The notes below the pieces were generated by a model that had not been told where the DNA came from, ran no database searches, and saw only the letters and a program-made list of their open reading frames with translations. A stretch of DNA of 64,000 nucleotides from a virus. A program made the position numbers and the translations under genes. Positions 7,967 through 42,963 of this stretch are shown piece by piece. Within the stretch, counting starts at the first letter, position 1; each line of letters opens with the position of its first letter. Where the stretch lies: the IMG/VR virus record IMGVR_UViG_3300023440_000004, positions 1 through 64,000 of that record. One strand, given 5' to 3'.

Positions 7967-8449
7967 ATGGTGGCCAGGACCAGAAGGGCCAGGACCAGAA
8001 GTCTGACCGGGACCTTGCTGACCGAAAAGGAGTCGCTGTTTCTGGCGCGTCTTGCCGAGGGGATGACACCAGCGGCAGCCGCAGCGGCCGCTGGGTACGC
8101 CAATCCGGCGTCGACTGCGAGGGCGTTGATGCTGCGCCCCCACATCCGTGACGAAGTGGCCAACATCCAGGCCAGGCTGCATGACGAACTGGGGGTATCC
8201 CGCGTCAAGGTGCTGCGTATGCTGAACGAGGCGTACCAGTTGGCGTTGGAGAAGGAAGACCCGAAGGCGATCGTGCGTGTTGCGGCGGAGATCAACAAGA
8301 TGTGCGGGTACTATCAGCAGGGGGACCAGGGCGGTGGCCAGGTGATCGAGCGTCTTCAGCGGGCGCTCGATCCTGACCCTGTCCAGGGGCTTCCGGACGA
8401 GGAGTTGATGAAACTCGCCAACGGCGTCCCGCCCGATGAAGAGCCTTGA
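7967..8449 (+). CDS. terS: terminase small subunit
   Basis: 160 aa. LTEKESLFLARLAEGMTPAAAAAAAGYANPASTARALMLRPHIRDEV is a typical TerS HTH pattern. It lies immediately upstream of, and overlaps, the large terminase. Confidence 0.7.
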   Translation: MVARTRRARTRSLTGTLLTEKESLFLARLAEGMTPAAAAAAAGYANPASTARALMLRPHIRDEVANIQARLHDELGVSRVKVLRMLNEAYQLALEKEDPKAIVRVAAEINKMCGYYQQGDQGGGQVIERLQRALDPDPVQGLPDEELMKLANGVPPDEEP

Positions 8450-13753: not shown

Positions 13754-13756
13754 CAC

Positions 13757-21556: not shown

Positions 21557-21557
21557 T

Positions 21558-22718: not shown

Positions 22719-22722
22719 GGCC

Positions 22723-24909: not shown

Positions 24910-27092
24910 TGAACGACGAAGTGATGCAACATTGGGGCGCGTACCGTAGGGCCAGGGATTTCGGCCACAAACGTTACGTCGCCAAGGCCGAACGCTGTGA
25001 GAAGTACTTTCGCGGGGATCAGTGGGATCCCAGGGTCCTGGCCCAGTTGGGCGACCGTCCAGCGCTGACGGCCAATATGATCCTGGCGACGATGGCCACG
25101 GCTTTCGGACAGATGGCCGAGAACTACACCGAGGTCCTGTTCTACAGCAAGGACCCCCGGAACGCCGACATGAACGAGGTTCTTCGTAAGGTGTTCCGGC
25201 ATATTTACAACGAGAACCGCCTACGTTGGAAGGACCTGAGCATGGCCATGGACGGCCTGATCACGTCGCGCGGCTTCCTCGACGTTCGGATGGCGTTTGA
25301 TGAAAACCTGCACGGTGACGTGCGCATCACGCACCTGGACCCCAGGGACGTTCTGATCGACCCGGACGCGAGGGACTATTTGCCTACCGGGTGGAAAGAG
25401 GTGTTCATCAGCCGGTGGCTTACCCTTGATGAGATACGGGTGCTGTACGGCGAGCAGAAAGCCAAGCAAGTGGAGGCGTCCGTCGTCAACGGAATCGGCC
25501 CGGTCGAGGACATTATCTCCGACTTGTCGGTGGGCGGGGCTTTCTCCGGTGAAGCGGGCCCTGTTCCCATCGCCCCGGCGTACTATGGCGATTCGGTGCC
25601 CAAGCGGTACCGGGTCGTGGAGCGCCAGTACCGTAAGCTGGATCGGTCGTTGTACTTCGTCGATCTCGACACCGGCGAATCCCGTCCGGTCCCGGACCAA
25701 TGGGACGAAGCCAAAGTACACGACGTCATCGCTCGGGCCGCCGAGCGTGGAGCTCGGCTGACGGTCGTCCCGAGACTGGCCGAACGCATCCGTATGGTCG
25801 TGTTCGCCGGCAGTGTCGTTCTTCACGACGCCTGGAGCCCCTACGAAACGTTCACGATCGTCCCGTATTTTCCTTATTTTCGCTGGGGCGAGACGATCGG
25901 GGTCGTAGAGAATCTTCTTGACCTCCAGGATGCGACCAACAAAACGCTTTCTCAAACATTACACGTCATCAACACCACCGCCAATTCCGGCTGGATCGTC
26001 AAGTCCGGGGCGCTGGTCAATATGGCCATTGAGGATCTTGAAGAACGCGGTGCCGAGACTGGGCTTGTTCTGGAGGTCACTGATATGGGCGGCATCGACA
26101 AGATCGCCCCCAATCAGATACCGACAGGTTTGGACCGAATCACGCAGCAGTTGTCCGAATGGGTCAAGTACGTCTCCGGGATATCCGATTCCATGCGCGG
26201 GTTCGACCGGGCAGACGTGGCCGCCAAGGCGATCATCGCCAAGCAACAGGCCGGGGCCATCTCCCTCACGGTGCCGTTCGAGTCGCTGAACCTGACCCGC
26301 CGGTATCTGGCCGAGGTCATTCTTAAGATGGTCCAACGGTATTACACGGAACCCCGGATCATGCGCGTGGCGCCGGACGAGTTGAACGGCGAGGAGGCGG
26401 TCGTCGAGGTTAACATGCCCAACGTATACGGGCAGATCGTCAACGACCTGACGCTGGGGGAATACTCCGTCGTCGTCAAGTCCGTCCCGCCGAAGGAGCG
26501 TCAGGACGAGGCCACCTACCAGCGGGCGCTCAGTCTTCGAGAAGCTGGCGTCCCCGTGCCGGATTGGGTCCTGGTCGAAAGCGCCGGGCTGCCCGATCCG
26601 GGGCGTATCATGCGGGATATCGAACAGGCTCGACAGGCGCAGGAGCCGATGGCGCAGTTGGAGCAGGAGCTCAAGCAGCTTGAGGCCCGCAAGACGCAGG
26701 CCGAGATGGTCAAGACGCTCAGCGAAGCGGAGTTGCTCAGGGCGAGGTTGCAGGAAGTCCTGTCGAACGTTGTCGGTTCGAGTGCCAAGATGCGGCTACA
26801 GGATAAAAACCTTAGATTGAAATACCTTACCGAGTTGGATAAACTCTCCCAGAACGCGATGCTCGAACGTGAGCGTCTGCTGGCCCAACTCGAAAAGGAG
26901 GACTTACTCAATGTCGATCGAGGCGCAGGAACAGGTACCGGAGCAGCAGCCGGAAGTGGCGGAAACGCAGGAAGTGGAAACTCCGGAAACCGAGACTCAG
27001 GAGGCAGCAGCCCAAGAGGCGGAAACCCAGGAAGCGCAGGAGACTCCGGAGCCGGGCGGCAGTCCGGTAATGATACCCAAGTATCGGTATGA
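24909..27092 (+). CDS. portal protein
   Basis: ATGA overlap start (MNDEVMQHW). AERCEKYFRGDQWDPRVLAQLGDRPALTANMI is a typical portal N-terminal pattern. About 727 aa, located before scaffold and capsid. The Gly/Ser-rich tail overlaps the scaffold gene. Confidence 0.8.
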   Translation: MNDEVMQHWGAYRRARDFGHKRYVAKAERCEKYFRGDQWDPRVLAQLGDRPALTANMILATMATAFGQMAENYTEVLFYSKDPRNADMNEVLRKVFRHIYNENRLRWKDLSMAMDGLITSRGFLDVRMAFDENLHGDVRITHLDPRDVLIDPDARDYLPTGWKEVFISRWLTLDEIRVLYGEQKAKQVEASVVNGIGPVEDIISDLSVGGAFSGEAGPVPIAPAYYGDSVPKRYRVVERQYRKLDRSLYFVDLDTGESRPVPDQWDEAKVHDVIARAAERGARLTVVPRLAERIRMVVFAGSVVLHDAWSPYETFTIVPYFPYFRWGETIGVVENLLDLQDATNKTLSQTLHVINTTANSGWIVKSGALVNMAIEDLEERGAETGLVLEVTDMGGIDKIAPNQIPTGLDRITQQLSEWVKYVSGISDSMRGFDRADVAAKAIIAKQQAGAISLTVPFESLNLTRRYLAEVILKMVQRYYTEPRIMRVAPDELNGEEAVVEVNMPNVYGQIVNDLTLGEYSVVVKSVPPKERQDEATYQRALSLREAGVPVPDWVLVESAGLPDPGRIMRDIEQARQAQEPMAQLEQELKQLEARKTQAEMVKTLSEAELLRARLQEVLSNVVGSSAKMRLQDKNLRLKYLTELDKLSQNAMLERERLLAQLEKEDLLNVDRGAGTGTGAAAGSGGNAGSGNSGNRDSGGSSPRGGNPGSAGDSGAGRQSGNDTQVSV

Positions 27093-29546: not shown

Positions 29547-29723
29547 ATGAAAGTGGTCGTATCTGACCGGGATCGGCGGGTGGTCCTTGGCCCCCATATC
29601 CTCAACCTGAAAGCCGGGGACAATAAGGTCCCCGCTGAGTTGGCCGACCAGCTGGTCGATTTGCCTGGGTTGAAGCTAAAGCGGGCTAAAGCGGAGTCGC
29701 CTGCCGAGAGTAAATCTTCCTGA
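29547..29723 (+). CDS. small hypothetical protein (58 aa, below the ORF-track cutoff)
   Basis: ATG 29547 with GAGGTG 5 nt upstream. MKVVVSDRDRRVVLGPHILNLKAGDNKVPAELADQLVDLPGLKLKRAKAESPAESKSS*. A terminator follows. Confidence 0.55.
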   Translation: MKVVVSDRDRRVVLGPHILNLKAGDNKVPAELADQLVDLPGLKLKRAKAESPAESKSS

Positions 29724-29729: not shown

Positions 29730-29755
29730 GGGGCGGCGATGGCCGCCCCTTTTCC
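29730..29755 (+). terminator. intrinsic terminator
   Basis: GGGGCGGC-GATG-GCCGCCCC stem-loop followed by TTTTCC. Confidence 0.7.
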
Positions 29756-29767
29756 TTGGGTGCAATT

Positions 29768-30940
29768 ATGGCTATCGATAACCGTGAACGGGCCAGACGA
29801 AACCGGCGTCGCGGTATGCAGGACGTTGCATCGGCTTTACCGGAGCTACAGACGGGCCGAAATCGGTTCCGTGGCACACAACGTCCAGGATCTTCGAACT
29901 CCATGAGCTTCTTCTCCGACCTGCTCGCCACCGGCGAGGCGGCCCCGGAACCGAAGCAGCCGCAGGCCCCAGAACCGAAACCTAAGACGCTGACGGGACC
30001 GACCAACCCCCCGTCGCCTGGCGGGGTGCTTGGGCTCCGTGAGCTGATGGCCGCGATGGGGAAGGCGCCGGACCTGTCCGGCTATCGACAGGTGCGGATG
30101 TTGCAGGACATGGCCGCTACCGATATCGAAGCGCCCAACATGCGACGTGTGGCCCGACAGGCCAAGGACTATTTGAACCGTCTCGGCATTACTGGACCGT
30201 CGGACCTGGGCGGGCCGTCCAGCCGGTTCCAGAAGCTGGCGTATGCCAAACTGTTGTCACAGACCGCAGCCAATATCGCCAACCGTCAGTTGGGCACCAC
30301 CAAGACGCAGGCCGACGTTCTGCGGCAGTTGATCGGGACGTCCGGTAGCGTACTTGGCACTGGTCTAAGCGCCCAAGCCGCATACGCCAACGCCCGCAAC
30401 GCGGCGCTGCGTGGGCTAGCGGCGGCGCTGGCCAAGACGAATACGAAAACGAAGACGAGTAAATCATCGACGAGGGACCCAAACAAAATCGACTACAAGA
30501 AGTGGTTGAGCGTTCTGCAAGGGCGGTTGGGTGCGGACCCCGTTGCCAAGGTGGCGGCGAACACGGCCCTGGACGCTTACGCGCAGACCGGGCGTGAACC
30601 ACCACCAGAGCTACTGGCGCTCGCGAACCGGGAGTTTCTGCAAAAAGTGAAAGATGCCGCCGACAATGCCACGTTTTCCATCTTCCGTGCGGTACCGTGG
30701 TCCGACACGGCGATGCTCCGCAAAGCCAATCGCGGCCTGGAAGCGTCACAGAACCCGCTCATGTCCGCCGTCGCGTCCGGCCAGTGGGCCTTCGACCCCT
30801 CGCAGCACGCCTTGGTCCCTGTCGGGCCTCGGTTCGGGGTGGAGCAATCGGATAGAAAACCGATAAGTCTGGATTTGTCCGATCCGGTGCAGAAGCTGAT
30901 CGCCAACTTGTTTCGGTTGAGAGTCAATGGCCAACAATAA
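29768..30940 (+). CDS. hypothetical protein (390 aa), possible internal virion protein
   Basis: ATG 29768 within track ORF 29756..30940. Basic N-terminus, Pro/Gln-rich linker, Ala-rich body. Overlaps the start of the giant gene by 14 nt. Confidence 0.75.
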   Translation: MAIDNRERARRNRRRGMQDVASALPELQTGRNRFRGTQRPGSSNSMSFFSDLLATGEAAPEPKQPQAPEPKPKTLTGPTNPPSPGGVLGLRELMAAMGKAPDLSGYRQVRMLQDMAATDIEAPNMRRVARQAKDYLNRLGITGPSDLGGPSSRFQKLAYAKLLSQTAANIANRQLGTTKTQADVLRQLIGTSGSVLGTGLSAQAAYANARNAALRGLAAALAKTNTKTKTSKSSTRDPNKIDYKKWLSVLQGRLGADPVAKVAANTALDAYAQTGREPPPELLALANREFLQKVKDAADNATFSIFRAVPWSDTAMLRKANRGLEASQNPLMSAVASGQWAFDPSQHALVPVGPRFGVEQSDRKPISLDLSDPVQKLIANLFRLRVNGQQ

Positions 30941-33900
30941 CCAGGATCGTAAGCGCCCTTTCGGGGTCAGGGACATCCTTCAGGCGAACCTGGCCCGAGA
31001 TATGATGAACTACGCTGACCCGGCCCGGCGGCGGGCTCTGAACCAGGAGCTTGCCGGGGATTCCGATTTTGCGCTCGGGGTGCGGGCCGGACTGGGTCGT
31101 ACCATCGCCGGGCTCCAGGCGCTGACAGGATTTACCGGCAGCGCGCAGGACACCCTGAGCACGCTCGAAACGCTGCCCACTCCACGGGTTACGGACTACC
31201 GTAAGATCAAGTCCCTGAGCGACGCGATCGACTATATCCAAGGGCTCGCCGGGTCATCCGCCCCGCAATCGCTAGCCACCTTGGGGGCGTTGGTTGCCAA
31301 CCCGGCGTTGGGACTCGGCGTTAGCGCGGCGATGTTTGGCGGCGAGAACGTCCTCGAACAGATGCAGCGTGGCGTCGCGCCAGAAGACCTCGACCGTGCC
31401 AGGGCGCTGGGCACCGGGGCGATCCAGGCGATCCCGGATGTCATCGGTGCTGGCGTCATCGCCAAGAGCTTGCGAACGATCGGTAGGGCGGCCCGTACCG
31501 GCGGGGTAGCCAAGACTATCGCTAAAGAAGCGGCCAAGGGTGCCGTCGGCGAGGGCCTTCCGGAGCTGTTCCAGGAAGAACTAACGATGCGCCAGGCTAG
31601 CGGACTGCCCGGCGCCCGTGAGCTAACCCCAGAAGAAGTCGCCCGACGGCGATTGGACGCGCTTATCGGCGGCGCTGCGCTTGGTACGGCGATGGGTGGC
31701 GCCGCCGGCGTCGGGCACGCCGCCGCGAACGCCCTTTCCGCCCGTGCTGTGCCGGAACAACCCATGTCGGCTGGCGCTGGCCCAGAAGGTGGCGTAGGCG
31801 GCCAGTCCGCTACCGAGACGGTCGTACCGCCAGAGCCCCCGCTCGGTGCCCAGGGGCCGGCAGCAGCCCCGACGCCGGATGTGCAGGTCCGTCCGATGGC
31901 CGAGGGACAGGCTCCGAAGGTCATGGGTATGACGTACCCCATGCCAAAGGACCTGAAGGTGGGTAAGCGAGAGGACTCGACGACGTTCGACGAGATCTTA
32001 GCTGGACGCCGCACGGCGACTACAAGGGCTACCCTTCCCAAAGGAGTGGAACCCGGACAGACCGTCGTGTTTACGTCAGGCGATGGTCGTAAGTCGGGAA
32101 CGTACGTCGTCCAGGATATCATCCCGTCTCCTCTGCGGCCCATGTTTCACAAGCCGCTCAAGGAGTGGACCGGCGAGGAGCGCAAACGGGCGGCGGAGTG
32201 GGCACGTCGTGAGCAATGGAATCCGTTTGTCATCAAAAAGAAAGCCGAGGCGGGTGACAAGGCGGCCCAAAAGCTTTGGGATCAGGTTGCCGGCCCCAGA
32301 GCCAAGCAGATTATTTTCGCCCCCATCGAAGCCACTCAGCCGGCCACTCAGCCGGCCGCTCAGCAACCTGCGGTAAAGTTCCGCTGGAAACAGCACGAAA
32401 CCCGCACGGTTCCCAGCGAGTTCATCTCGGCACCTTTGAGGAAGCGAGTCGCCCCTACTGGAGATAGCGCTCACGCCCTGTTCCTTGGAGCTGAGACGGG
32501 AGCGGTCACGGCCGCCGCTTCGAAGGTTAAACCGGGCGATACGCTGTACGAACGCACGTTACCGGACGGGCGGGTCGAAAGACTTGTCGTCGAGGACAAG
32601 GCCAAGAAGACCGCCTGGTTGACCGAACAGATGCTCAACGCCCGTACACCCAAGGAGCAGCGGGCGGCCGTCGTTGAGTTCTTGCGGACCGACAAGGGCG
32701 CCAAGGTGGCGAATCGATTGGGCTTGAATCCTAAGTTCGTCGCCAAAGTGCGGGCCGGAGACCGAACGGCGGTCGATCTAGCGGCCCGGATGTTCAACCG
32801 GCACACGGCCCTTTACAAGGTACGCCGTGAGATTGCCAGGCAGACCCAGCCTCAGACCCAGGCTCATCCTCAGACCCAGGCTCAGCCTCAGACCCAGGCT
32901 CAGCCTCAGACCCAGGCTCAGCCTCAGACCCAGGCTCAGCCTCAGACCCAGGCTCAGCCTCAGACCCAGGCTCAGCCTCAGACCCAGGCTCAGCCTCAGA
33001 CCCAGACAACCCAAGGCGTCGCACGTATCGTGGCGGCGGCCAAGCCTCCGTCACGATACGTTCAGAAGGAGCTGACCAAGGCGCGCGTCGCCACCAAGAT
33101 TCTCGCCCCTAGGATCGATCGAGAAGGGGCCGACCAGTCCTTCGCCGTTCGTCTCGCTAAGGCGGCCCCTGACGAGGCTCGGGTCGTTCCGGGATCGAAC
33201 GCCGATAATGTGGCGAAGGACGACGTGGTGTACATCTCCAATCCGGGGGCGTCTCGGTTCAGCGACAAGGCAAAGGCGCGGGAGTACGTCCAGAAGTACG
33301 TCGTGCCGACGGTCAAGCGTATCTTCGCCAAGGGCGCTTCGATCGTCATGGACTCTCCGGAGCACGCCAACCGCACACACAACCGGGAGACGGAAGGCAT
33401 GCTGTCGAACATTCTGGAGAACCCGGACGAAGCTATGCGGGTGTTCGGCGGCGAGGTGGTCCGTAAAGACCTTGGCAATGGGGCCGTCCAGTATTCCCTG
33501 CGCCCCCGTAGGCAGGCGCCAAAACCACCACAGCCCAAGCCACAGCCCAAGCCACAGCCCAAGCCACCAGCCAAGCCGCGGCCGCGAGCGCGTCGGCGGG
33601 TGACGAGCGCTGAAGCCGAAGCGTCCGGCGTTACCGTCGAGCGCATCGCTTCGGACGAGCCTTCGGCGCAGACGGAGCCGGAGCCCGCCAACAACCTGGT
33701 CGAAACGCTGTCGTCACGGGCTACCGAGTACTTGCGCGGTATCTCTAAAGCGGCGGTCGATCGTATCATCAACAGCGTTGTGTCCGTCGAACCGGACACC
33801 AAGCTGGAGTCGCTGATACGGCAAAAAACATTACCGATTTCGCGCGAGGTGGCGACGGCTCGCCTTCGTGCGTTAGCACAGCACCTTGCGGAAGCGGAGC

Positions 33901-36900
33901 TCGCCCCGGCCTTGAAACGGGTGGATAAGATCCTCAAGCGTCTTGGGGATGATGGGATCGAAAACCTGTTGAATCGAGTGCCCGATGTTCCCAAAACCCC
34001 AGCGGCTACGGAAGGCCCGTCGCTCGAAGACCTGGCCGGAGAACTCGGTGTATCGCAGAAGGCCCGCAACGTTCTGGACGCGCTGATCCATCAGTTGTCC
34101 TTCGACGTCGAACTATCCGACACCGCCGAATGGGACAAGGCCGTAAGGACCGTGGCCCAGATGGTCGAGTCCGCCAAGCGAGACACTCCGGAAGCGCCTT
34201 ACGTGCTCGGGGTTCTCACGGCGCTCGGGCGTAGCTCTAACGAGCAAAAGGTCAAGTTCCTGTCCGATGTCGTCACCAACGGTATGCGGACGGAAACGGC
34301 CGACCACAAGCAGGCTAGGTTGGCCGCTGCCCGTGTAGCGCGCACGTTAAGGGAGTTGGCCACCGATCCCAAGTTGCTGCGGGCGGCGATGCGTATTCGG
34401 ACGTCCGACCTGACGTTGAACGAGTCGCTGCTGGATTTGCTGCTGAAGTTCTACGACCCGAATACGGAACCGGACGAACTGCCGGTCGACGCCCGCGCCA
34501 GGGCGATTCGGGCCACGGCGGAGATCGTTGGCGGCCGTCGGAGTGGTAAGGGCTCGCTCGATTTGAACAGCAGTCTGCGCGATCGGCTGGAAAGCCTGGC
34601 GTCCAATCCGCGATCGGATATCGGACGGAAGGCCGCACAAGTACTCCGCGTCGTCCGCTCCATGGCCAACCAGACTTTGAGTCGGGAACTGCACCCACAG
34701 GTCGATCCCTTCGAGGAATCGCCGGCGGCCACGCGCCCCATGGAGTCCGACGAAATCGGTACTGGCGAACTGAAACGCTCGGACGGGCCGGAAGGTGCCA
34801 CCGTCCAGGTTCGCAAGATGTCCCGTGACGTACCGGACCCGGAGGCCGCACCATTGTTGACCCGGCTGGCCGAAGCCTTCCGATCTAGAAAGCCGAGCGA
34901 GGTGCTCCGGGTCGCCAGCAACGATGGCTTCGTCCGGCTGCTTCACGAGGCCATGCTCTCGACGGAAACCATCCTGGTACCCGATCCTGCCGGCACGAAG
35001 AAGGAGGGCGGTGTCGAGTTCACCCCCGTGCTTCGAGCGCCTATTCTCCAGCGCGTGTATCGGGGCAAGAACACCCAAGAGGCCGCCGCTACCCGTAAGC
35101 TGGTACGTGCGCTGCTTGCCAGGCATGGCGCACTGGTACCTGAAAACACCAAGTACGTCCCGTTCGGGGCGATCAAGGTGCCCGGTATCGGTATCGTCAA
35201 GCCGTGGAAACTCCATAACATGGCGAAGTTGGTGGGTGAGTTCACATCCACGGTAGACGACGATGCCGAATTGCGAGCGCTCCAGAGTCTCATGGTGCTG
35301 GACCGTGTGCTGGCATTCGCGTCCGAGCCCGTCACCATCGACACGATCGCCGAGTCCGCTCCGGAAACGGTGTTGGCGGACCAGAATTCTTTCGACACCT
35401 TGCGGGCCAAGACGCTCGGAGAGCTGTACCACGGCATCGGATCGGCCTTGCATTTGCGGGCCAGGGCAGCGCAATGGCGGCGATTCAAGTCGGACAAGAT
35501 CACGCTGTCGCGGTTGGATAAGGAAGTGTTGAAGCATAGCGGGTACACGCCAAGCGGTGAGGGTACCGCCACGACCCGCGAAGGTAAGGAAGTCAAGATC
35601 ACCCAGGCCCTGATGACCAAGGTTTATCAGCGGGCCTATCACGATGCCACCGCATCGTACAAGGACCGGAAAGGTCGCCCGTTCCGAGGCTCGCTGGCCA
35701 GCACGATGGCGGAGGCCATGGACAACTACGCTCGGGGGCTCTATCGAAATCAGATAGAGCTAATGAAAGCTCAGGCTGAGAAAGGCAATCTTCGAGCCAA
35801 AGCTATTCTGGACGAGTGGCGCGCTTGGTACCGTGGTGGCCGTGGCGATCATCCCGTGTTCGCTGCTCTGGCACGGGCCGGCGTAGACATGTCCCCGAGC
35901 CTCAAGACGTCTGACATCGTGGAAGCTGAAAAGCGCCTGTTCGAATTGAAGCAGGCCGGCGATTTGCCCCCCGGTGTGTGGGAGTCCTATCGCACCGCCT
36001 TGAAAGACTGGTCCGAGCAACTGGATCCGATCGAGCGGTCGATGGATTACAAGGGCAGCGACCGTCTGAAGCGGTATCTCGGATACCGTCGGGCAGCCAA
36101 GTATTGGCGGGAGAAGGACCTGGAGACTTTCGTCAGGAACGCCGAGACGATGATCGCCCTGGACGACCCGTTGCGCGGCGATATGCCCGGATCAGCCGAC
36201 CAGCTCCGCCAGGCGATCGGGTTCGGGTACGAAGACTCGGTGGTGTCCGAGAAAGACCCGCTGTATATCGATAGGACTCGGGAGCAGGGGATCGTCACCT
36301 ACGTCCGTGGCGAGGAGTTTTACGACGCCACCGCACGATCCTACGTCGAATCCGTCGCCAAAGAGACGATAGCCCGGTCCAAGCTGGTATATCGGGCCAA
36401 GCAACGGCTTAAAGCCATCCCGACGTACAAGGAGATCGACGAGCAGCTTAGCGCTGCCAAAGACGAGCTTTCCAAGTACGAATCTGTCAGGGACGCGATC
36501 AAGCGGGACCTTTCGAAGCTGAAATCCAAGGTCGGCCCCGAGGTCCGGCGGCTTCGAGACGAGTTGGGCACCGAATTGGAGCGGGTGCTTACTGCTATCG
36601 ACGCCATGCGGGATCGCGTGGCTGAACTGGAACGTACGCGCCGACAACGGGCGTTTTGGGAATCGCTATCCAAAGGCCGCAAGGCACATCCGGCGCTGCC
36701 GTCGAGGTCCCAGGTCGCCATCGCCAAGCGTATCCTCGAACAGGGGCGGGATATGAGCCTCAAAGACTTGGGCTTGCTGGCCAAGGAAATGGGCGTCAAG
36801 GCCATCACGCCAGACCCGGAAATGAGAATCATTCTCATTTCCACGGGCGACGCTGCTACGACGGCCGCTCGGGAAGCCCGCTTGGTGAAGCTTGGGTTCT

Positions 36901-39900
36901 CGGAGGTCATCCCGATTTCCCAGAACGATCAGGAGTTCTCCAACAAATTCCTCTCGGCCGTGCGTACGGAGAAGCCTGTCATCGTCGTCGACTTCGACAA
37001 AACGATGAAGCGTGAAGAACTCGCCGCCATCATCCGGGAGCAGCGACCAATCCGAGCGAAACTTGCGAAGATGGACCGGGCCGCCCTGCGAGCGGCGAGA
37101 AAACTAGCTGCGAGCCAGTTGGCGATGTCGACACTGGACAAGCTGGTCGGCAATAAGCCGATCGGCGTCGCTATTCTCGACGATTTGGTCAGCGGATGGC
37201 GAGACGGGCGTGTCGATGCCGAGGAGGTGGCCTATGCCGTTATCGCAGATGATACTAAGGCGGCCGCCAAGCTCCGGGCGCGCTGGGGCAAAGCGCTGCG
37301 TGGCAGTCAGGCCGGCGTCAGGCTCGCCCGCATCTTCGACGTTGCCGACCGAATCAGACAGGTTCGGGCGCAGGTGGCTGAAGACGGCGGTTCGATCGAG
37401 CAGATCCGCGCGGCGGTCGAACGGGCGGCCAGCGTCGAAATTCGGTTTGCTTCCCAGGAAGAAGCGGAGGTCGCCAGGTCCGACGTGGCCGGTATCGTCC
37501 AGGCGTTCATTACCCGCGTTTTTTCGGACGCCTGGTTGAAATCCATCAACGTCGAATTCGTTTGGCCGGACGTCACCAAGGTTGGTGACGAATGGACGTT
37601 CACGGATAGCGAACAGTCTCGCGTTCTGTTCGAGTCCACGTTGGGGTCCGGCAGCAACTTTCTGGCGTTCTCCGTCAACCAGGACGGTGGTGTCCGAATC
37701 CACCTGTCGGCGAGATTCGTCAATAAGGTACTGGCGAACGGGAAAAGGCTCACCGCCTCCACTGCATATGCGCTTGTGCACGAGTTGGCCCATGCGTATG
37801 TCGATCGGATGGCAGACGCGAACGAGCCAGTGCGCTGGTGGCTGGAGGAGTTGAGTAAAGGGACGTTCGACTGGATGCGCGGTGGCGGGTTGGTCGGTAC
37901 TAGCGCTTGGGAGTCCCGGCTGGCCGCCCGGAAGAAACCCGGACGGAAGAAGGTGAACCATTACCTGGCGTTCGACGAGATGGCCGCCGATGCCATCGCG
38001 GCTTACGTGTTCGGCGCGGATGCCGAGGCGATCCCGCAGTGGGTCCGTGGTATCGACAACCTTTTCCGCGAGGACGCCTTCGAGCTCCTCCATACACTGA
38101 CGCAGCGGCAGGAGGCCGATGTCGCCGACGCGGCTACGGAAGCAACCATGGAAGCGAGCGAGGATACGCAGGACGCTGGCGTCGATGTCGGCCCCATGCC
38201 GTCCGGTGACATGTCCTTCGCGGATTGGGTCGCGGTGACCCGTGCTGGACAGTGGTATACCACCAAGTTCGTCGTCGGCTTGGCCACCCACCTGACCCGC
38301 GTGGTCGACAAGGATACCGCCAAGCTGCTGATGAACAACGCCACGCAGCCTAGGGTACTGTTCCAGCTACGCAAGTTCGTACAGGAAACCTATGCCGAAG
38401 CGCCGGACGTTCGAGACGCCCTACTGGAAAAGCTGAACGACAGTCCCGAGACGGCTGCCGCGCTGTGGGTACAGGCGCAGTTGCTCGGCGCCGGGGTCAC
38501 GGCGGTGTCTCCGAAGGCGTCGGTTCTCTATACCGGCTTCCAGAGGATCGTCGAGTCGCTGGGACGAATCCCTTCGGACAAGGCTGGCGATATGGCCGTG
38601 GAACTCTTGGCCGACCAGCTGACCCGCACGGATATCGGCACGTCGCACTTCTCACCCATCCGCTTGGATACCAAGCTTCGGGATCGGGTCCTTCAGCGCA
38701 TCGCCGGACGGGTCGAGTCGCTGATCGGCCCCATGGCTAAGAAGGCTAGGCTCCATGCCTGGTTCTTTACCGTCGCTGAGCGCTTGCACGGGTACAACAA
38801 CCCGCACATCAACGCGTTGGCTAGGCTGTTCACGACCGACAACAAGACGGGGCGAATCGGGGTGTTCTCCGAAGTCTCCCGTTTGCGTGGGCAGTACTTG
38901 ACCGAATACGACAGGATCGTCCGTGGGCTTAGTGCCGACCAGAAGCGCCGGATCTCCGAGGTTCTGTTGCGTTCGCAGCTATATGGCGACGATATCCATC
39001 AGGCCGGGCTTAGCCAGAAGGAGCTCGCTGCGGCGATCCGTCTGCGGCAGTTCTCCAAGACGGTGTACGACAACGTGGCCGAGTCTGGCGTGAACGTCGG
39101 TGATCGCCCGGACAATTACTTCCCCCTGATGTTCGACCTCGAATGGTTGATGGCTCACCGCAGCGAGCTGCGGGATATCCTGCTGGCTCATGCTCGGAAA
39201 GACGTCGAGGCGATCCTGAAAGAAACCAATAAAGCCAGAGCCCGCGCGGGTCGGGACCCGGTCAAGTCCGTCGAGGAAATGGCCGACACTATCGTCAGCG
39301 GGTTGCTGGCGGCGCATGGTCATGCCGACGACGCCAGCTTCGATATGCTGCCGGACGCCTATTCGCCACGCTTCATGTTCGGGTCGCGTCGGCTCATCAA
39401 CAAGCTATTGCTTTCGAAACCGGAGGTCGCTCGATTCGTCGAGACCGGCCTGTCCCGAGACTTGGACGCCATCATGGTCGCGTTTTCGTCTCAGGCCGGG
39501 CGACGGGAAGGCTTCGCCCGGATGCTCGGCCCCCGTGCCGAAAAGGTGCAGGAGCTGCTCACCAAGGCCCTTGAGCTGGAACCCGACCTTCCGGTAGACG
39601 AAATCATGCGGCTGTTGGACAGCCTATACGGTATCGGTGGGGCGCGTACCAACGAGGCGCTGCATCGTCTCCTCGGCAAGGAAGCTCCCGCCGGCGAGAC
39701 GATCAATCCGAAGCTCAGCTTCGCTACCAACCTGGCGAACGTCTATATCTACACGACCACGCTGGCGCTGGCCGCGCTGACGTCTTTTTCCGACGTCAGC
39801 GGTGTGATGGCTAGAATGAATGGAGACATGGATATCGCCTTCCGGGCACTGATGGACGGTATTCGTGGGGCGTTCGGCCGAGAATCCGGGCAACGCGCCA

Positions 39901-40805
39901 AGGACTTCGCCGAGACACTGGGTATCGTACAGTCGTCGACGCTGATTGAATTGCTCAATCGTTTCGATGCCGATACGCCTCAGCAACTCCCGAACCGTTT
40001 GGCGGCATTGTGGTTCCGGCTGACCTTCATGACCAAATGGGACCAAATCTCCCGCATCATGGCGGCATCGGCCGCTGAGCAATTCTTGATGCAAATACAC
40101 AACGGCAAAATTGCGGACGAGATGGCGTCCAGGTATTTGCAGGAGCTCGGCCTGACCCGCGACGACCTGGCTGCCGTCGCATCGGCTAACGGTAAGAAGA
40201 TCGAGCTTCTCACCCTGGACGAGATCGCCCGGCTTCGGGATACCGATCCGGCTCGGGTCGAGTTGGACCAGCGGATCAAGCAGGCTCTGGTCGAGGTGGC
40301 CGACAGTATGGTCGTGCGGCCCAACCCGGCTAACCGTCCCAGTTGGGCGAACGACGAACACTTCCGGCTGTTCTTCGCCCTCAAGAGCTTCGCCTACGCT
40401 TTCTTCCACCAAGTCGTGGCTCGGGCGTGGTACGAAGCGAAAGAGGGCAACTCGGTGGCACTGTTCACGCTGGTCGCCGTATCCGTTCCGATGACGATCA
40501 TGATCACGGCGATTCAGGACCTATTGAAAGGTTACGACGACACTGGGTGGCGGTTCGCCAAGTACGGGGTGTTCGGGTACACCTTGGACGCCTTCGGTAA
40601 AGCGGGTATATTAGGTCCGGCCGCGTTCCTCAACGACCTTGGCTCGGGGTGGGAATATGGCCTGTCGTCCGTGCTCGGTCCGTGGGTCAATACGGTCACG
40701 AACATCTACGAGGCCATGTTTGCGGGCGATCCTGAAGATAGGCTATCGGCGCAGCTTAGCCTGCTTCCGGGGGCGACGTTGATCCGCCCATGGGTTCTGT
40801 ATTGA
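30927..40805 (+). CDS. giant multidomain (polyvalent-type) virion or ejection protein, 3292 aa
   Basis: Single uninterrupted ORF. Gly/Ala-rich hydrophobic N-terminal segments. ASCH-like stretch TTFDEILAGRRTATTR...GQTVVF. QPQTQA and PKPQ tandem repeats. Zincin motif VHELAHAY (HELAH at 37779-37793). Predicted TM segments lie in the last 350 aa or so. Confidence 0.8.
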   Translation: MANNNQDRKRPFGVRDILQANLARDMMNYADPARRRALNQELAGDSDFALGVRAGLGRTIAGLQALTGFTGSAQDTLSTLETLPTPRVTDYRKIKSLSDAIDYIQGLAGSSAPQSLATLGALVANPALGLGVSAAMFGGENVLEQMQRGVAPEDLDRARALGTGAIQAIPDVIGAGVIAKSLRTIGRAARTGGVAKTIAKEAAKGAVGEGLPELFQEELTMRQASGLPGARELTPEEVARRRLDALIGGAALGTAMGGAAGVGHAAANALSARAVPEQPMSAGAGPEGGVGGQSATETVVPPEPPLGAQGPAAAPTPDVQVRPMAEGQAPKVMGMTYPMPKDLKVGKREDSTTFDEILAGRRTATTRATLPKGVEPGQTVVFTSGDGRKSGTYVVQDIIPSPLRPMFHKPLKEWTGEERKRAAEWARREQWNPFVIKKKAEAGDKAAQKLWDQVAGPRAKQIIFAPIEATQPATQPAAQQPAVKFRWKQHETRTVPSEFISAPLRKRVAPTGDSAHALFLGAETGAVTAAASKVKPGDTLYERTLPDGRVERLVVEDKAKKTAWLTEQMLNARTPKEQRAAVVEFLRTDKGAKVANRLGLNPKFVAKVRAGDRTAVDLAARMFNRHTALYKVRREIARQTQPQTQAHPQTQAQPQTQAQPQTQAQPQTQAQPQTQAQPQTQAQPQTQAQPQTQTTQGVARIVAAAKPPSRYVQKELTKARVATKILAPRIDREGADQSFAVRLAKAAPDEARVVPGSNADNVAKDDVVYISNPGASRFSDKAKAREYVQKYVVPTVKRIFAKGASIVMDSPEHANRTHNRETEGMLSNILENPDEAMRVFGGEVVRKDLGNGAVQYSLRPRRQAPKPPQPKPQPKPQPKPPAKPRPRARRRVTSAEAEASGVTVERIASDEPSAQTEPEPANNLVETLSSRATEYLRGISKAAVDRIINSVVSVEPDTKLESLIRQKTLPISREVATARLRALAQHLAEAELAPALKRVDKILKRLGDDGIENLLNRVPDVPKTPAATEGPSLEDLAGELGVSQKARNVLDALIHQLSFDVELSDTAEWDKAVRTVAQMVESAKRDTPEAPYVLGVLTALGRSSNEQKVKFLSDVVTNGMRTETADHKQARLAAARVARTLRELATDPKLLRAAMRIRTSDLTLNESLLDLLLKFYDPNTEPDELPVDARARAIRATAEIVGGRRSGKGSLDLNSSLRDRLESLASNPRSDIGRKAAQVLRVVRSMANQTLSRELHPQVDPFEESPAATRPMESDEIGTGELKRSDGPEGATVQVRKMSRDVPDPEAAPLLTRLAEAFRSRKPSEVLRVASNDGFVRLLHEAMLSTETILVPDPAGTKKEGGVEFTPVLRAPILQRVYRGKNTQEAAATRKLVRALLARHGALVPENTKYVPFGAIKVPGIGIVKPWKLHNMAKLVGEFTSTVDDDAELRALQSLMVLDRVLAFASEPVTIDTIAESAPETVLADQNSFDTLRAKTLGELYHGIGSALHLRARAAQWRRFKSDKITLSRLDKEVLKHSGYTPSGEGTATTREGKEVKITQALMTKVYQRAYHDATASYKDRKGRPFRGSLASTMAEAMDNYARGLYRNQIELMKAQAEKGNLRAKAILDEWRAWYRGGRGDHPVFAALARAGVDMSPSLKTSDIVEAEKRLFELKQAGDLPPGVWESYRTALKDWSEQLDPIERSMDYKGSDRLKRYLGYRRAAKYWREKDLETFVRNAETMIALDDPLRGDMPGSADQLRQAIGFGYEDSVVSEKDPLYIDRTREQGIVTYVRGEEFYDATARSYVESVAKETIARSKLVYRAKQRLKAIPTYKEIDEQLSAAKDELSKYESVRDAIKRDLSKLKSKVGPEVRRLRDELGTELERVLTAIDAMRDRVAELERTRRQRAFWESLSKGRKAHPALPSRSQVAIAKRILEQGRDMSLKDLGLLAKEMGVKAITPDPEMRIILISTGDAATTAAREARLVKLGFSEVIPISQNDQEFSNKFLSAVRTEKPVIVVDFDKTMKREELAAIIREQRPIRAKLAKMDRAALRAARKLAASQLAMSTLDKLVGNKPIGVAILDDLVSGWRDGRVDAEEVAYAVIADDTKAAAKLRARWGKALRGSQAGVRLARIFDVADRIRQVRAQVAEDGGSIEQIRAAVERAASVEIRFASQEEAEVARSDVAGIVQAFITRVFSDAWLKSINVEFVWPDVTKVGDEWTFTDSEQSRVLFESTLGSGSNFLAFSVNQDGGVRIHLSARFVNKVLANGKRLTASTAYALVHELAHAYVDRMADANEPVRWWLEELSKGTFDWMRGGGLVGTSAWESRLAARKKPGRKKVNHYLAFDEMAADAIAAYVFGADAEAIPQWVRGIDNLFREDAFELLHTLTQRQEADVADAATEATMEASEDTQDAGVDVGPMPSGDMSFADWVAVTRAGQWYTTKFVVGLATHLTRVVDKDTAKLLMNNATQPRVLFQLRKFVQETYAEAPDVRDALLEKLNDSPETAAALWVQAQLLGAGVTAVSPKASVLYTGFQRIVESLGRIPSDKAGDMAVELLADQLTRTDIGTSHFSPIRLDTKLRDRVLQRIAGRVESLIGPMAKKARLHAWFFTVAERLHGYNNPHINALARLFTTDNKTGRIGVFSEVSRLRGQYLTEYDRIVRGLSADQKRRISEVLLRSQLYGDDIHQAGLSQKELAAAIRLRQFSKTVYDNVAESGVNVGDRPDNYFPLMFDLEWLMAHRSELRDILLAHARKDVEAILKETNKARARAGRDPVKSVEEMADTIVSGLLAAHGHADDASFDMLPDAYSPRFMFGSRRLINKLLLSKPEVARFVETGLSRDLDAIMVAFSSQAGRREGFARMLGPRAEKVQELLTKALELEPDLPVDEIMRLLDSLYGIGGARTNEALHRLLGKEAPAGETINPKLSFATNLANVYIYTTTLALAALTSFSDVSGVMARMNGDMDIAFRALMDGIRGAFGRESGQRAKDFAETLGIVQSSTLIELLNRFDADTPQQLPNRLAALWFRLTFMTKWDQISRIMAASAAEQFLMQIHNGKIADEMASRYLQELGLTRDDLAAVASANGKKIELLTLDEIARLRDTDPARVELDQRIKQALVEVADSMVVRPNPANRPSWANDEHFRLFFALKSFAYAFFHQVVARAWYEAKEGNSVALFTLVAVSVPMTIMITAIQDLLKGYDDTGWRFAKYGVFGYTLDAFGKAGILGPAAFLNDLGSGWEYGLSSVLGPWVNTVTNIYEAMFAGDPEDRLSAQLSLLPGATLIRPWVLY
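32841..33008 (+). repeat. 18-bp tandem repeat (CAGACCCAGGCTCAGCCT) inside the giant gene
   Basis: Seven perfect copies from 32871 to 32996, plus degenerate flanking copies. It encodes (QPQTQA)n. Confidence 0.9.
33528..33575 (+). repeat. 12-bp tandem repeat (CCACAGCCCAAG), 3 perfect copies plus 1 variant
   Basis: Encodes PQPKPQPKPQPKPPAKP inside the giant gene. Confidence 0.85.
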
Positions 40806-40816: not shown

Positions 40817-41086
40817 ATGGAATTGAACGACAAAGCGCGTGAAGACATGTTGAAGGATACCGTCGTGGATATGATCATGCTAATCGCCACGACCGCCAAA
40901 GCACACCCGGAAACCGAGCAGGCTATGACCGTGCTCCGGGAAGCGTTGGGGCGTTTGCTGACGCTCACCGTCGGCCCTGAGTGGACGTCCCAGCATGAGG
41001 CCGACCTGGACACCCGGATAAAAGATGCTGTCGAGCGGCTTCGTAAAGCGGCATTGCAAGGGAGCGCCGATGTCAGTGCTGCATAA
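40817..41086 (+). CDS. hypothetical protein (89 aa)
   Basis: The ATG at 40817 has GGAGG 5 nt upstream. The in-frame ATG at 40805 (ATGA overlap with the giant gene) is an alternative start. Confidence 0.65.
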   Translation: MELNDKAREDMLKDTVVDMIMLIATTAKAHPETEQAMTVLREALGRLLTLTVGPEWTSQHEADLDTRIKDAVERLRKAALQGSADVSAA

Positions 41087-41390
41087 CTTCTTTGTTATCC
41101 ATAAAACACTTATAATCATGGCAGGGGCCGCCTTGCTAGGGCTGTTGACCGATTTCATTTCTCGGGCGCGCGACGGAAAAGTCAAGCCGCCTTTATGGCG
41201 GTCGTTCCTCTTGGACGCTCCGTCAGCGGCTTTGATGGGTATGATCGCTTATGGCGCCGGCTCTCACATCGGGCTCTCCGATGAAGCCCTGACGGCCCTA
41301 GTCGGCATTGCCGGACATATAGGCGGCCGTGGGCTTTACTTTTTGGAGCAGCTTGTATGGGAAACCGCAAAAAACAAAATCGGACGTTGA
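41070..41390 (+). CDS. holin (LydA-like, holin superfamily III pattern)
   Basis: 106 aa with AGGGAG RBS. Two or three hydrophobic segments (TLIIMAGAALLGLLTDFI, LLDAPSAALMGMIAYGAG). RARDGKVKPP...GLSDEALTALVGIAGHIGGRG resembles P1 LydA. It is adjacent to the amidase. Confidence 0.65.
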   Translation: MSVLHNFFVIHKTLIIMAGAALLGLLTDFISRARDGKVKPPLWRSFLLDAPSAALMGMIAYGAGSHIGLSDEALTALVGIAGHIGGRGLYFLEQLVWETAKNKIGR

Positions 41391-41536
41391 AGATCTTGCA
41401 TTGGGTCATCGCCGCACTTTCGGTCTCGGTATTGATGGCGGCCGCCATCGAGGCCGGACCGACCTGGGCAGCGGCGTTCTGGACGACAGCAGCCACGTTC
41501 GTCGTTTACGAGGTTCTTAAAGAGAGACGGACATGA
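41357..41536 (+). CDS. small membrane protein (59 aa, below cutoff); holin partner or antiholin candidate
   Basis: ATG 41357 with GGAG 8 nt upstream. MGNRKKQNRTLKILHWVIAALSVSVLMAAAIEAGPTWAAAFWTTAATFVVYEVLKERRT*. Overlaps the holin 3' end, and its stop overlaps the amidase ATG (ATGA). Confidence 0.55.
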   Translation: MGNRKKQNRTLKILHWVIAALSVSVLMAAAIEAGPTWAAAFWTTAATFVVYEVLKERRT

Positions 41537-42039
41537 GTACTTATCGTGACATCCGCAACATTCGTGGCGTGGTCGTACACTGCACGGCCACACAGAACCT
41601 TGAACCTGTTTCCATCTACTCGATCGACCTCTGGCACGCCAAACGAGGGTTCAGGCGGTCTCCGCAGATCAGTGATCTGTTCAACGATCATCTCAAAGCT
41701 TTTGGCTATCACTTCTTGATCCAGCCTGACGGGACGATCCAATCGGGGCGAGCTATCTGGGAGACGGGAGCGCATGCGAAAGGGTGGAACCGCTCCACCG
41801 TCGGAATTGCCCTCGCCGGTACGGACGCATTCACCGACGAAGCACTATCCCGTCTGTGGGAGGCGGTGACGTACCTCTCCCAGATCATCCCCCATGAACC
41901 CGTACCGTTCCTCTGCGGCCATCGGGACCTGCCCAACGTCCGTAAAATCTGCCCTGGGTTCGACGTTTGCAACACGGCTCCAGACTTCGTATTGGACCAT
42001 TATGTACCGTTCGACGAGGAAATCCACGGAAACCGATAA
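41533..42039 (+). CDS. N-acetylmuramoyl-L-alanine amidase (endolysin, T7-lysozyme/PGRP type)
   Basis: 168 aa. VVVHCTAT, WHAKRGF, GYHFLIQPDGTIQSGR, GAHAKGWNRSTVGIALAG, GHRDL...CPGFDV together form the canonical Amidase_2 motif set. Confidence 0.85.
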   Translation: MSTYRDIRNIRGVVVHCTATQNLEPVSIYSIDLWHAKRGFRRSPQISDLFNDHLKAFGYHFLIQPDGTIQSGRAIWETGAHAKGWNRSTVGIALAGTDAFTDEALSRLWEAVTYLSQIIPHEPVPFLCGHRDLPNVRKICPGFDVCNTAPDFVLDHYVPFDEEIHGNR

Positions 42040-42169
42040 GCTGCTTCGTGAGTATCGACCGAAAACGAAGCTTGGTGAGGTACTACTGGAGCTACGCCGG
42101 CGGTATATCGAGTCTGGCGGTAAACTCTTGACCGAAAAAGAATTGTTCGACGAGGAAATCCACCGATGA
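42002..42169 (+). CDS. small hypothetical protein (55 aa) sharing its last residues (FDEEIH) with the amidase
   Basis: Internal ATG of track ORF 41894..42169. MYRSTRKSTETDKLLREYRPKTKLGEVLLELRRRYIESGGKLLTEKELFDEEIHR*. Flanked by a 19-bp direct repeat (42009-42027 / 42145-42163). Stop overlaps the next ATG. Confidence 0.4.
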   Translation: MYRSTRKSTETDKLLREYRPKTKLGEVLLELRRRYIESGGKLLTEKELFDEEIHR

Positions 42170-42963
42170 AGATAACGCATTTCTGGTGCTGGGAGAATGG
42201 CATTCGCCACGTCCGTGCCGCTCGTATTGAAGGCGTCCCATACGACCGGGTACTTCAGCAGCTTACCCGTCACCGGTCGTTCGCCTATTCTGTTCAGTCT
42301 AGCCGGGCCTCGTCTCTCCCGCTCGATTGCCGCCCCGAGTGGTCCGTGGCGACGGGGAAACGGATGTTCGATAGCAAGCCCGCCTCCAATCTCCGAGCCA
42401 AACTTGCCAATGCCATTTTTGCTTATGGCCGCCTGCAAGCGCGGATCACCGCCACAGGTCTCCGTCTGCTTGGCCTCCACCGTCAAGATTGGCAAACGCC
42501 GCTCAAACCATATGCCACCTGCACGGTGATGATGATCGGGCCTGATTGGGCGTGGGAACATTTCTACGAGCTCCGGCGCCACGAGACGGTCCAACCGGAC
42601 GTGCGTAAATTGGCCCATTTGTTGTCGAAGGCCGATAGAGACACCGACCCGGTACAAACAGCCGTGGGGTGCGTCTACGGTCCTTTCCTTGACAATCAAC
42701 TGTACGTGCCGGATGGGGACATCCCGATAGAGGAGTGGCCAATTCGGTTGCTCCGGGCCATTTACCGAGTGTCGAGGACCTCGACGAACAAAACCACCCT
42801 CCCGAACGACGACGTTGTCCGCAAAGCGGTAGTGCGTCTATACAAAGACAAACACGCCAGCCCGTTCGAGTTTTTCGCTATAGCTCTGCCGTACGGAGCA
42901 CGCGGGGACGGTATCTACCAGTATGTTCCGTTTCTGTCACTCAGAGACTATTTGTCGTTATGA
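42166..42963 (+). CDS. ThyX-like (flavin-dependent thymidylate synthase fold) protein, divergent and N-terminally shortened
   Basis: 265 aa. RHVRAARIEG, then RHRSFAYSVQSSR (compare ThyX RHRxxSxxxxSxRY). Later PLKPYATCTVMM...WEHFYELRRHETVQPDVRKLA lines up with ThyX LPxxxxTxxxxTxNxRxLxxFxxLRxxxxAQxEI. The HxSPxEH segment before RHR appears to be missing. Confidence 0.45.
   Translation: MKITHFWCWENGIRHVRAARIEGVPYDRVLQQLTRHRSFAYSVQSSRASSLPLDCRPEWSVATGKRMFDSKPASNLRAKLANAIFAYGRLQARITATGLRLLGLHRQDWQTPLKPYATCTVMMIGPDWAWEHFYELRRHETVQPDVRKLAHLLSKADRDTDPVQTAVGCVYGPFLDNQLYVPDGDIPIEEWPIRLLRAIYRVSRTSTNKTTLPNDDVVRKAVVRLYKDKHASPFEFFAIALPYGARGDGIYQYVPFLSLRDYLSL

Follow-up and report, generated by a model that had tools for sequence, protein, structure and literature searches.

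In T7-like phages, gp16 resides in the internal core above the portal, is ejected unfolded through the tail, and rebuilds part of a trans-envelope conduit at the inner membrane. The characterization of giant packaged proteins in podoviruses is only now under way, the examples being gp50 of phage N4 (the virion RNA polymerase, 3500 amino acids (aa)) and gp47 of Stx phage phi24B. The phi24B protein (2811 aa, with LPD5, LPD1, LPD38, and MuF-C domains) is abundant in virions as judged by proteomics, is invisible in maps, and is proposed to be an ejection protein (2026 preprint). Such proteins pose the problem of how 300-400 kDa of polypeptide can be stored, passed through a tail channel of about 35 Å, and used. 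The locus described here lies in a stretch of 64,000 nucleotides (nt), called the window, which corresponds to positions 1 to 64,000 of the IMG/VR virus record IMGVR_UViG_3300023440_000004 and represents a podovirus-like phage genome. A single open reading frame (ORF) of 9.9 kb on the plus strand (30927..40805) encodes a 3292-aa protein, the giant, within the late structural module of this podovirus, whose capsid is of the N4 type. We regard it as probable that the giant is a virion-packaged ejection ('pilot') protein of the polyvalent type, built on a gp16-like chassis with expanded cargo.

As judged by profile matches, the giant is one member of a large family whose sequences come almost entirely from metagenomes. 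When its last 1192 aa (aa 2101-3292) were searched exhaustively against 1.84 billion representative proteins by using HMMER, 1619 clusters were recovered at E<=1e-3, 1078 at E<=1e-10, and 104 at E<=1e-30. Most of these proteins are 2000-3800 aa in length. Among the best 150 of the clusters, 115 reach 1800 aa or more (median 2133, maximum 3812), and their match is C-terminal. The family therefore comprises more than 1600 metagenomic clusters, with almost no cultured members and no Pfam model; within 50,697 phage genomes, the only isolates that carry it are four KPP25-like phages and Aeromonas phage phiA008. In PHROGs, only the last 700 aa of the giant are matched (aa 2585-3290, E 2e-30), by phrog_30152 'virion structural protein', a group in the category 'head and packaging' that consists of KPP25 ORF088 and its orthologues. 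Pfam and NCBIfam searches with the whole giant return almost nothing, and the NCBIfam matches are noise. A word-indexed database of 5.8 billion proteins yields nothing for aa 2101-3292 or for aa 335-640; this index is blind at about 30% identity, and the exhaustive HMMER search still gave the 1619 clusters. Likewise, tblastn gives no match for aa 1-1000, and nothing was returned from IMG/VR when the C-terminal 792 aa served as the only query. The nine IMG/VR loci reached through the capsid protein (L002-L010) also lack any tblastn match to the giant at distances of up to 10 kb.

Iterated hidden Markov models (HMMs) built from the 150 best matches define three conserved parts of the family, which occur in the order N-module, variable middle, HExxH zincin, and C-module (Table 1). 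The C-module is found in all family sequences (E 2e-189 for the giant), the N-module stands at the N-terminus of 114 of 152, and an HExxH motif is present in every one of the 117 full-length relatives, at a median of 211 aa upstream of the C-module. Members of 2018-2353 aa on four IMG/VR contigs carry all three modules in one ORF, with about 650 aa between N-module and zincin. Because this distance is about 1900 aa in the giant and about 650 aa in typical members, the extra length of the giant is attributable to an expanded middle. The two nearest relatives, P0001 (2793 aa) and P0002 (3524 aa), have only short collinear pieces of the middle in common with the giant.

The giant gene is a genuine single ORF. 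It begins with ATG and continues as one open frame of 3292 codons without an in-frame stop, whereas the alternative frames contain 86 and 81 stops; base composition alone would produce such a frame with a chance of about 5e-45. GC content at third codon positions (GC3, 0.69-0.78) exceeds that at first positions, which exceeds that at second positions, in all sixteen 600-nt windows of the ORF, and the uniformity of this order hints at neither a frameshift nor a gene fusion. The unusual length is the sole argument that the giant might be an artefactual fusion of several genes through sequencing or assembly errors. Against such a fusion stand the codon-position pattern, the stop counts, and the finding of the same order of N-module, zincin, and C-module in single ORFs of the 117 full-length relatives and of the four independent IMG/VR contigs, so its chance is negligible. 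The uninterrupted 9.9-kb ORF described in the initial annotation is thus sound, and the motifs listed there are all found in the giant where it placed them.

The C-module is predicted to fold as a set of helices like that of phage core proteins. An AF2 model of aa 2101-3292, which used a 57-sequence alignment, has a predicted local distance difference test (pLDDT) score mostly above 90 for aa ~2450-3292, and this part is all helical. When the model was compared by using Foldseek with 350,542 PDB chains, only two matches had E<=1e-3, both with probability 1.0. One is 8vb2_A, from the PhiM1 pre-infection ejectosome (E 3.6e-5), and the other is 9jyy_I, a 1223-residue chain of the mature T7 core (E 6e-4). 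The PhiM1 ejectosome is composed of ejection proteins, both tetrameric and octameric, and T7 gp16 is named as the tetrameric ejection protein (8VB2 paper). In BFVD, a collection of predicted viral structures, 90 matches have E<=1e-3. At the top are the KPP25 protein and several uncultured-phage proteins labelled 'large polyvalent protein associated domain-containing', followed by many Autographiviridae entries labelled 'internal virion protein D / internal core protein' (E 1e-10 to 1e-8, TMq 0.3-0.4); proteins of this kind from RSB3, LKA1, LIMElight, JG068, VP2, and BB8 are among the matches. This specificity is striking and suggests that the C-module has the fold of gp16 and the tetrameric ejection proteins, a fold-level homology that needs domain-wise confirmation. 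The initial annotation had likened the giant to fused T7 gp14-16 proteins, and the likeness extends to gp16 through the C-terminal 830 aa but not to gp14 or gp15, neither of which matches the N-module or the C-module; Pfam also reveals no SLT domain in the giant.

Three C-terminal segments had been named as transmembrane-like, namely VYIYTTTLALAALTSF (aa 2939-2954), VALFTLVAVSVPMTIMITAI (aa 3177-3196), and GILGPAAFLNDLG (aa 3227-3239), in the last 350 aa or so. On the Kyte-Doolittle (KD) scale, one of these is strongly hydrophobic (aa 3178-3196, 2.17 over 19 aa), but the other two score only 1.27-1.38 and 0.96. The block that contains the strong helix is conserved, with the family consensus GN..P...L...P.M.A.D.LR.

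The zincin lies directly before the C-module and includes the VHELAHAYVDR motif recognized in the initial annotation. Its metal-binding residues are H2285-E2286-x-x-H2289 (HELAH, aa 2285-2289, nt 37779-37793), 172 aa before the C-module, with a predicted third ligand, E2351, in the sequence FDEMAA (nt 37971-37988) at +64. In family members, the usual context is LAHExGH, and a motif resembling F(D/E)EW(F/A)A follows at a median of 79 aa downstream in 66 of 117. Pfam searches with 400-aa windows give two sub-threshold matches at the HELAH site, to BSP peptidase (21.4 bits, cut-off 23.8, E 2.5e-4) and to Aspzincin M35 (E 0.018), and four of 16 relatives match Peptidase_M78. A sub-profile built from the giant, P0001, and P0002 aligns to the family zincin profile over 151 columns (probability 98.4%, E 5e-15), with HExxH on HExxH and FDEMAAD on FeEWFAD. 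The family profile itself can be aligned with aa 2157-2348 of N4 gp50 (probability 91%, E 1e-6), and both metal-binding elements are then in register. This region of gp50 was assigned as a zincin-like metallopeptidase (MPTase), a domain that forms the hub of polyvalent proteins and probably acts in self-processing (Iyer et al. 2017), and it was named CTD-C1 in the 2026 N4 structure. Iyer et al. also take gp50 as an exemplar of polyvalent proteins. A search of PDB with the sequence of the giant's zincin region returned nothing. Together with the syntenic HExxH of all 117 relatives, the profile alignments support the identification of a zincin in the giant.

The N-module accounts for the Gly/Ala-rich, hydrophobic beginning of the protein pointed out earlier. 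It consists of 14% Gly and 20% Ala and has three moderately hydrophobic helices (aa 119-137, with KD 1.59, aa 160-178, and aa 245-263). In an AF2 model of aa 1-1200, aa ~35-260 form a confident helical bundle (pLDDT >90), and little else is confident. Weak PHROG links connect the module to phrog_6958 'virion structural protein' and to phrog_10089, a DarB-like giant anti-restriction group, and a gp47-like protein of an Stx phage has a domain match with E 2e-6. Foldseek matches in BFVD are to N-terminal pieces of proteins with large polyvalent protein associated domains (LPDs; E 3.7e-4 and 2.7e-3) and to an entry labelled 'RNA polymerase (fragment)' from a podovirus (E 7e-3, probability 0.95). 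A profile of seven N-termini from N4-like virion RNA polymerases aligns to N-module positions 160-232 (N4 aa 372-444) with an hhalign E of 4e-4 and a probability of only 34%. The N4 N-terminal domain has predicted membrane-spanning helices and inserts into nanodiscs (2026 N4 structure), and by analogy, it would be reasonable to suppose that the N-module has a similar role in membrane insertion.

These resemblances to gp50 raise the question of whether the giant is itself a diverged virion RNA polymerase of the N4 type, which would transcribe early genes once injected. Its gene has the same place as that of gp50 within an N4-like late module, in the neighbourhood of an N4-type capsid gene, the two proteins are of similar size (3292 versus 3500 aa), and the zincin and possibly part of the N-terminal domain are common to both. 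However, the giant matches no RNA polymerase family in Pfam, PHROGs, or NCBIfam, its middle aligns to the polymerase domain of N4 with an hhalign E of 0.6, and its C-module is gp16-like and unrelated to the CTD-C2 domain of N4; the family profile of the C-module has no significant match to N4 aa 2400-3500. A cryptic RNA polymerase was likewise considered and rejected: the giant lacks the R...K...YG pattern of motif B, and the same pattern recovers the N4 motif at aa 1663. A polymerase function thus has only a very slim chance.

Cysteine avoidance is a further property of the giant, which has no Cys, where about 19 would be expected from the 0.57% Cys of other large proteins in the window. The same absence is seen in 113 of the 117 full-length relatives (maximum 2), in N4 gp50 (0/3500), in T7 gp15 (0/747) and gp16 (0/1318), and in KPP25 ORF088 (0/2009). 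Such shared avoidance would fit proteins that travel unfolded through the tail and the oxidizing periplasm, and absence of Cys may more generally mark proteins whose ejection takes them through the periplasm; as a family-wide signature, it is both simple and testable. These data also bear on the idea that the giant is an external tail, fibre, or tape-measure-like protein. Such an assignment could draw on its size, its largely helical character, its place in a structural module, and weak coiled-coil-type matches around aa 1810-1905. However, only internal core and ejection proteins are matched by its fold, no receptor-binding or fibre domain rich in beta structure was found, its lack of Cys is that of ejected proteins, and candidate tail genes are located elsewhere in the window (11234-24909). 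An external role is accordingly very improbable.

The middle of the giant is composed of low-complexity linkers, a small ASCH-like domain, and a long helical region. The linker repeats had been counted as nine copies of QPQTQA and four of PKPQ, which is approximately right (18 nt x 8.8 copies and 12 nt x 4.2 copies). The near identity (98%) of the QPQTQA copies suggests a recent expansion and a possible length polymorphism of this inter-domain linker. Internal sequence repeats beyond the linkers were considered and rejected.

The ASCH-like stretch begins with TTFDEILAGRR at aa 352 (nt 31980) and has the signature G-x-R-T-A-T-T-R ... W..(E/R)(G/E)(Q)W. This signature recurs at quite different places in four relatives (P0005, P0058, P0116, and P0148), and for this reason, we read the stretch as a mobile cargo domain. 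Pfam ASCH matches three of the five copies and is the top match for two, at E-values of 0.004-0.1 that are all below the gathering threshold. The initial annotation's call of an ASCH-like barrel is consistent with this recurrence, but the giant's copy scores 18.2 bits (E 0.004) against an ASCH (PF04266) gathering threshold of 21.2, two homologous copies of relatives score 15.8 and 13.7 bits, and the AF2 model of aa 350-450, in which a PUA-like fold was looked for, is of low confidence (pLDDT 30-79) and has just two short strands. Overall, the recurrence in relatives indicates that aa 352-440 are probably a real mobile cargo domain of PUA/ASCH-like type.

No family in Pfam, PHROGs, or NCBIfam can be assigned to aa 480-2150. 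Within the variable cargo, aa 1380-1512 are collinear with P0001 (E 3e-6) and aa 853-1149 with P0002 (E 0.07). The conserved stretch that follows (aa 1926-2022) is the counterpart of the N-terminal strands in the family zincin profile. A short domain at 33000-33530 (aa ~700-860; ...DDVVYISNPGASRF...KGASIVMDSPEH...) is common to the giant and P0002 (aa ~380-500). A YAcAr/SLOG identity for this domain was rejected, as one of 16 relatives scanned matches YAcAr SLOG (E 3e-8) and the giant's copy has no Pfam match.

In the mechanism that we propose, the N-module would dock in the capsid core and/or insert into the membrane, as the N4 gp50 N-terminal domain does, and the variable cargo, including the ASCH-like domain, would be strung along low-complexity linkers as 'beads on a string'. 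The zincin, directly before the gp16-like module, might cut the polypeptide, thereby releasing or activating the cargo in the head or after delivery, and the C-terminal ~830 aa, as a T7 gp16-type module, could serve as a channel or anchor. Packaging of the giant is expected from the homology of its modules to virion proteins; ejection, membrane insertion, self-cleavage, and an effector role of the cargo would follow by analogy with the known systems. The initial annotation had classed the giant with the polyvalent proteins, and this is partly upheld: an MPTase hub with HExxH and a downstream Glu is present, and the gene is encoded among late virion genes. However, there is no LPD domain, and no effector activity can be assigned to the ~1900-aa cargo. 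Specifically, Pfam LPD models match none of the 400-aa windows of the giant at E<=5 and none of 19 relatives scanned, whereas LPD5, LPD1, and LPD38 were strongly matched in an Stx phage control. The distinct domains recognized in the giant are the zincin, the sub-threshold ASCH-like domain, and the gp16-like module, and a multi-effector nature would be a hypothesis about the remainder.

Several observations weigh against this interpretation. For the C-module, TM-scores are low (0.16-0.20 against PDB and 0.3-0.5 against BFVD), such that the global conformation differs, and the link to gp16 depends on Foldseek 3Di scores, which long helical proteins may inflate. By sequence profile, the C-module is not similar to T7 gp16 (hhalign E 0.03, probability 2%; HMM E 0.04), gp16 has no significant match to the N-module profile either, and the family C-module profile finds only low-complexity artefacts among PDB sequences. 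The zincin of the giant is divergent, with Ala in HELAH replacing the family Gly (HExGH), and could be inactive; the region alone has no match to the family HMM, the sub-profile with P0001 and P0002 being needed, and it is modelled with pLDDT <50. In addition, searches of Pfam, PHROGs, and NCBIfam identified no enzymatic effector domain in the ~1900 aa of cargo, and T7 gp14 and gp15 match no ORF neighbouring the giant, which therefore has no recognized partners of those types.

An alternative is that the giant is a purely structural protein of the ejectosome or core, in which the middle is helical spacer or filler, the zincin is dead or acts on the cell wall in place of the lytic transglycosylase of gp16, and no effectors are delivered. 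The middle is indeed mostly predicted to be helical or of low complexity and matches no enzyme family, and the authors of the phi24B preprint propose a peptidoglycan role for the metallopeptidase domain of gp47. In several of the gp16-like BFVD matches, moreover, the same fold is preceded on its N-terminal side by a domain of wall-degrading or peptidase type, labelled 'Transglycosylase SLT', 'Matrixin', or 'toxin homologue of phage lysozyme'. However, the ASCH-like domain lies at varied positions in four relatives, as mobile cargo would, and the span from N-module to zincin ranges from ~650 to ~1900 aa, which is hard to square with a fixed structural role. To our knowledge, HExxH...E zincins of the giant's kind are not a usual class of peptidoglycan hydrolase, which also counts against a structural protein. 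On balance, a purely structural role is unlikely, and an ejection protein with expanded cargo remains our preferred explanation.

The neighbourhood of the giant is that of a late virion module, as the initial annotation had surmised. The late genes are arranged in the order large terminase (TerL), tail genes, Hc3-type connector, portal, scaffold-like ORF, major capsid protein, giant, holin, and amidase, and DNA polymerase and helicase genes are located downstream on the opposite strand, so that replication genes flank both sides. The nearest match of the capsid protein is that of Pseudomonas phage KPP25 (46% identity), and a megablast search with 20 kb matched no isolate phage, which indicates that none is close at the DNA level. 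The giant ORF does not directly follow the capsid unit, as had been stated, because a 121-aa gene, a terminator-like hairpin, and a 394-aa gene intervene. The position of this strong hairpin after the capsid unit points to separate regulation, or attenuation, of a unit composed of the 394-aa gene and the giant. Immediately 5' of the hairpin is a short ORF (about 29547-29690).

The 394-aa gene product, likely a co-translated partner of the giant, is a candidate for a second ejection protein that acts with it. It lacks Cys, has no family match, and is not similar to N4 gp51-gp55, T7 gp14 or gp15, or KPP25 ORF001. The 728-aa ORF that directly precedes the portal (22723-24909, plus strand) has homologues (E 1e-24 to 7e-26) on three IMG/VR contigs (L016-L018), where they lie two genes upstream of the giant-family gene. 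On those contigs, the giant is placed in a tail/ejection cluster and not after the capsid gene, and the module order has therefore been rearranged. Just past the lysis genes, and on the same strand as the late genes, an ORF at 42166-42963 (plus strand) has a weak match to a thymidylate-synthase PHROG (E 6e-11).

Table 1. Features of the giant gene and of its surroundings in the window
Feature	Position (nt)	Strand	Evidence or remark
Whole gene, 3292-aa giant protein, zero cysteines	30927..40805	+	ORF and composition analysis
N-module, Gly/Ala-rich helical bundle (aa 47-279)	31065..31763	+	E 6e-45 for the giant with the iterated HMM
ASCH-like (PUA-like) small domain (aa 352-440), probable	31980..32246	+	Motif recurrence; sub-threshold Pfam ASCH
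QPQTQA low-complexity linker, 18-nt tandem repeat x 8.8 copies, 98% identical	32847..33005	+	
Pro/Lys/Gln linker (PKPQ), 12-nt repeat x 4.2 copies	33528..33577	+	
Variable 'cargo' (aa 890-1925), mostly helical, no recognizable family	33594..36701	+	
Conserved stretch before zincin (aa 1926-2022)	36702..36992	+	P0002 match E 2e-5
Zincin-like metallopeptidase (MPTase, aa ~2190-2370)	37494..38036	+	Pfam sub-threshold, family conservation, profile-profile
C-module (aa 2456-3289), all-helical, ~830 aa	38292..40793	+	PHROG, HMMER, AF2, Foldseek
Strongly hydrophobic helix (aa 3177-3196, KD 2.17-2.27)	40455..40514	+	Within conserved block
Primase-like gene	5462-7960	+	Upstream of late genes
Large terminase (TerL)	8436-9998		
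Tail-type genes, one with lectin-like domain, one Hc3-type connector	11234-24909		
Portal	24855-27092		Followed by scaffold-like ORF
Major capsid protein, N4 / Stx-phage type	28045-29160		
Strong hairpin resembling a terminator (stem of 8 G-C pairs, loop of 4, TTTTCC tail)	29730-29749	+	Between capsid unit and 394-aa gene
394-aa gene	29756..30940	+	Stop overlaps giant ATG (ATGGCCAACAATAA)
Holin	41025-41390		Downstream of giant
Amidase	41533-42039		Downstream of giant

Among described proteins, KPP25 ORF088 and its Kochitakasuvirus orthologues are directly comparable with the giant. They have a homologous C-module (24% identity over ~825 aa; Foldseek E 1.7e-26, TMq 0.5) and an N-module at the N-terminus, and the phages have related capsid genes. 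In contrast, the KPP25 protein is only ~2000-2300 aa long, the region from N-module to zincin being ~1200 aa longer in the giant, and the gene order differs, in that ORF088 comes after the tail genes and the giant after the capsid unit. The depositors annotated ORF088 as 'structural' or 'virion structural protein'. ORF088 (NC_024123.1, ~551-1400, minus strand; L011 and L001) also seems to be annotated ~280 aa too short. Its frame remains open upstream of the annotated GTG start, across an un-annotated gap, to 'MATTPFDETRPV...', and this extension holds a complete N-module (family HMM positions 5-240, E 5.7e-40).

T7 gp16 and, presumably, the PhiM1 tetrameric ejection protein resemble the giant in the fold of its C-terminal ~830 aa, in their lack of Cys, and in being encoded by late genes. 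In gp16, as in the giant, an enzymatic domain is located immediately upstream of the helical body. However, that domain is an N-terminal lytic transglycosylase in gp16, whereas the giant has instead a zincin and about 2200 further residues.

The gp47 protein of phi24B is, like the giant, a giant single polypeptide that includes a zincin and belongs to a podovirus with an N4-type capsid. In its orthologue from Stx phage vB_EcoP_phi296 (PV189400.1), the presence of LPD5, LPD1, LPD38, and MuF_C was confirmed by using Pfam. The orthologue is distantly related to the giant family through its N-module (domain E 2e-6) and zincin (E 3.5e-7), and the C-module HMM does not match it.

N4 gp50 is also the last gene of its late module, in which terminase, tail, portal, and capsid genes precede it. 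Both gp50 and the giant comprise an N-terminal domain, membrane-associated in gp50 and possibly so in the giant, a low-complexity linker, a central body, an HExxH domain, and a large helical C-terminal domain, in this order; their zincins are homologous at the profile level, and neither protein has any Cys. Unlike the giant, gp50 contains an RNA polymerase domain, its CTD-C2 is unrelated to the C-module, and the similarity of the N-termini is only suggestive.

The giant connects three subjects that are usually treated apart, namely ejectosomes of the T7 type, giant ejected enzymes of the N4 type, and the multi-effector 'polyvalent' proteins, and its expanded cargo is a defined place in which to seek new injected effectors. 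It is possible, although we advance this only tentatively and do not think it probable, that the family represents a general protein-delivery chassis of abundant and almost uncultured podoviruses. Such a chassis would combine a fixed N-module and gp16-like channel with a zincin as release device and a slot for exchangeable cargo, through which new injected effectors could be directed against host defence or physiology. In the giant, this slot would have expanded to about 1900 aa of domains that, the ASCH-like one excepted, have no known relatives. In that case, N4 gp50, with an RNA polymerase as its cargo, and Stx phage gp47, with LPD domains as its cargo, might be parallel solutions, each with the N-module and the zincin in common with the giant.

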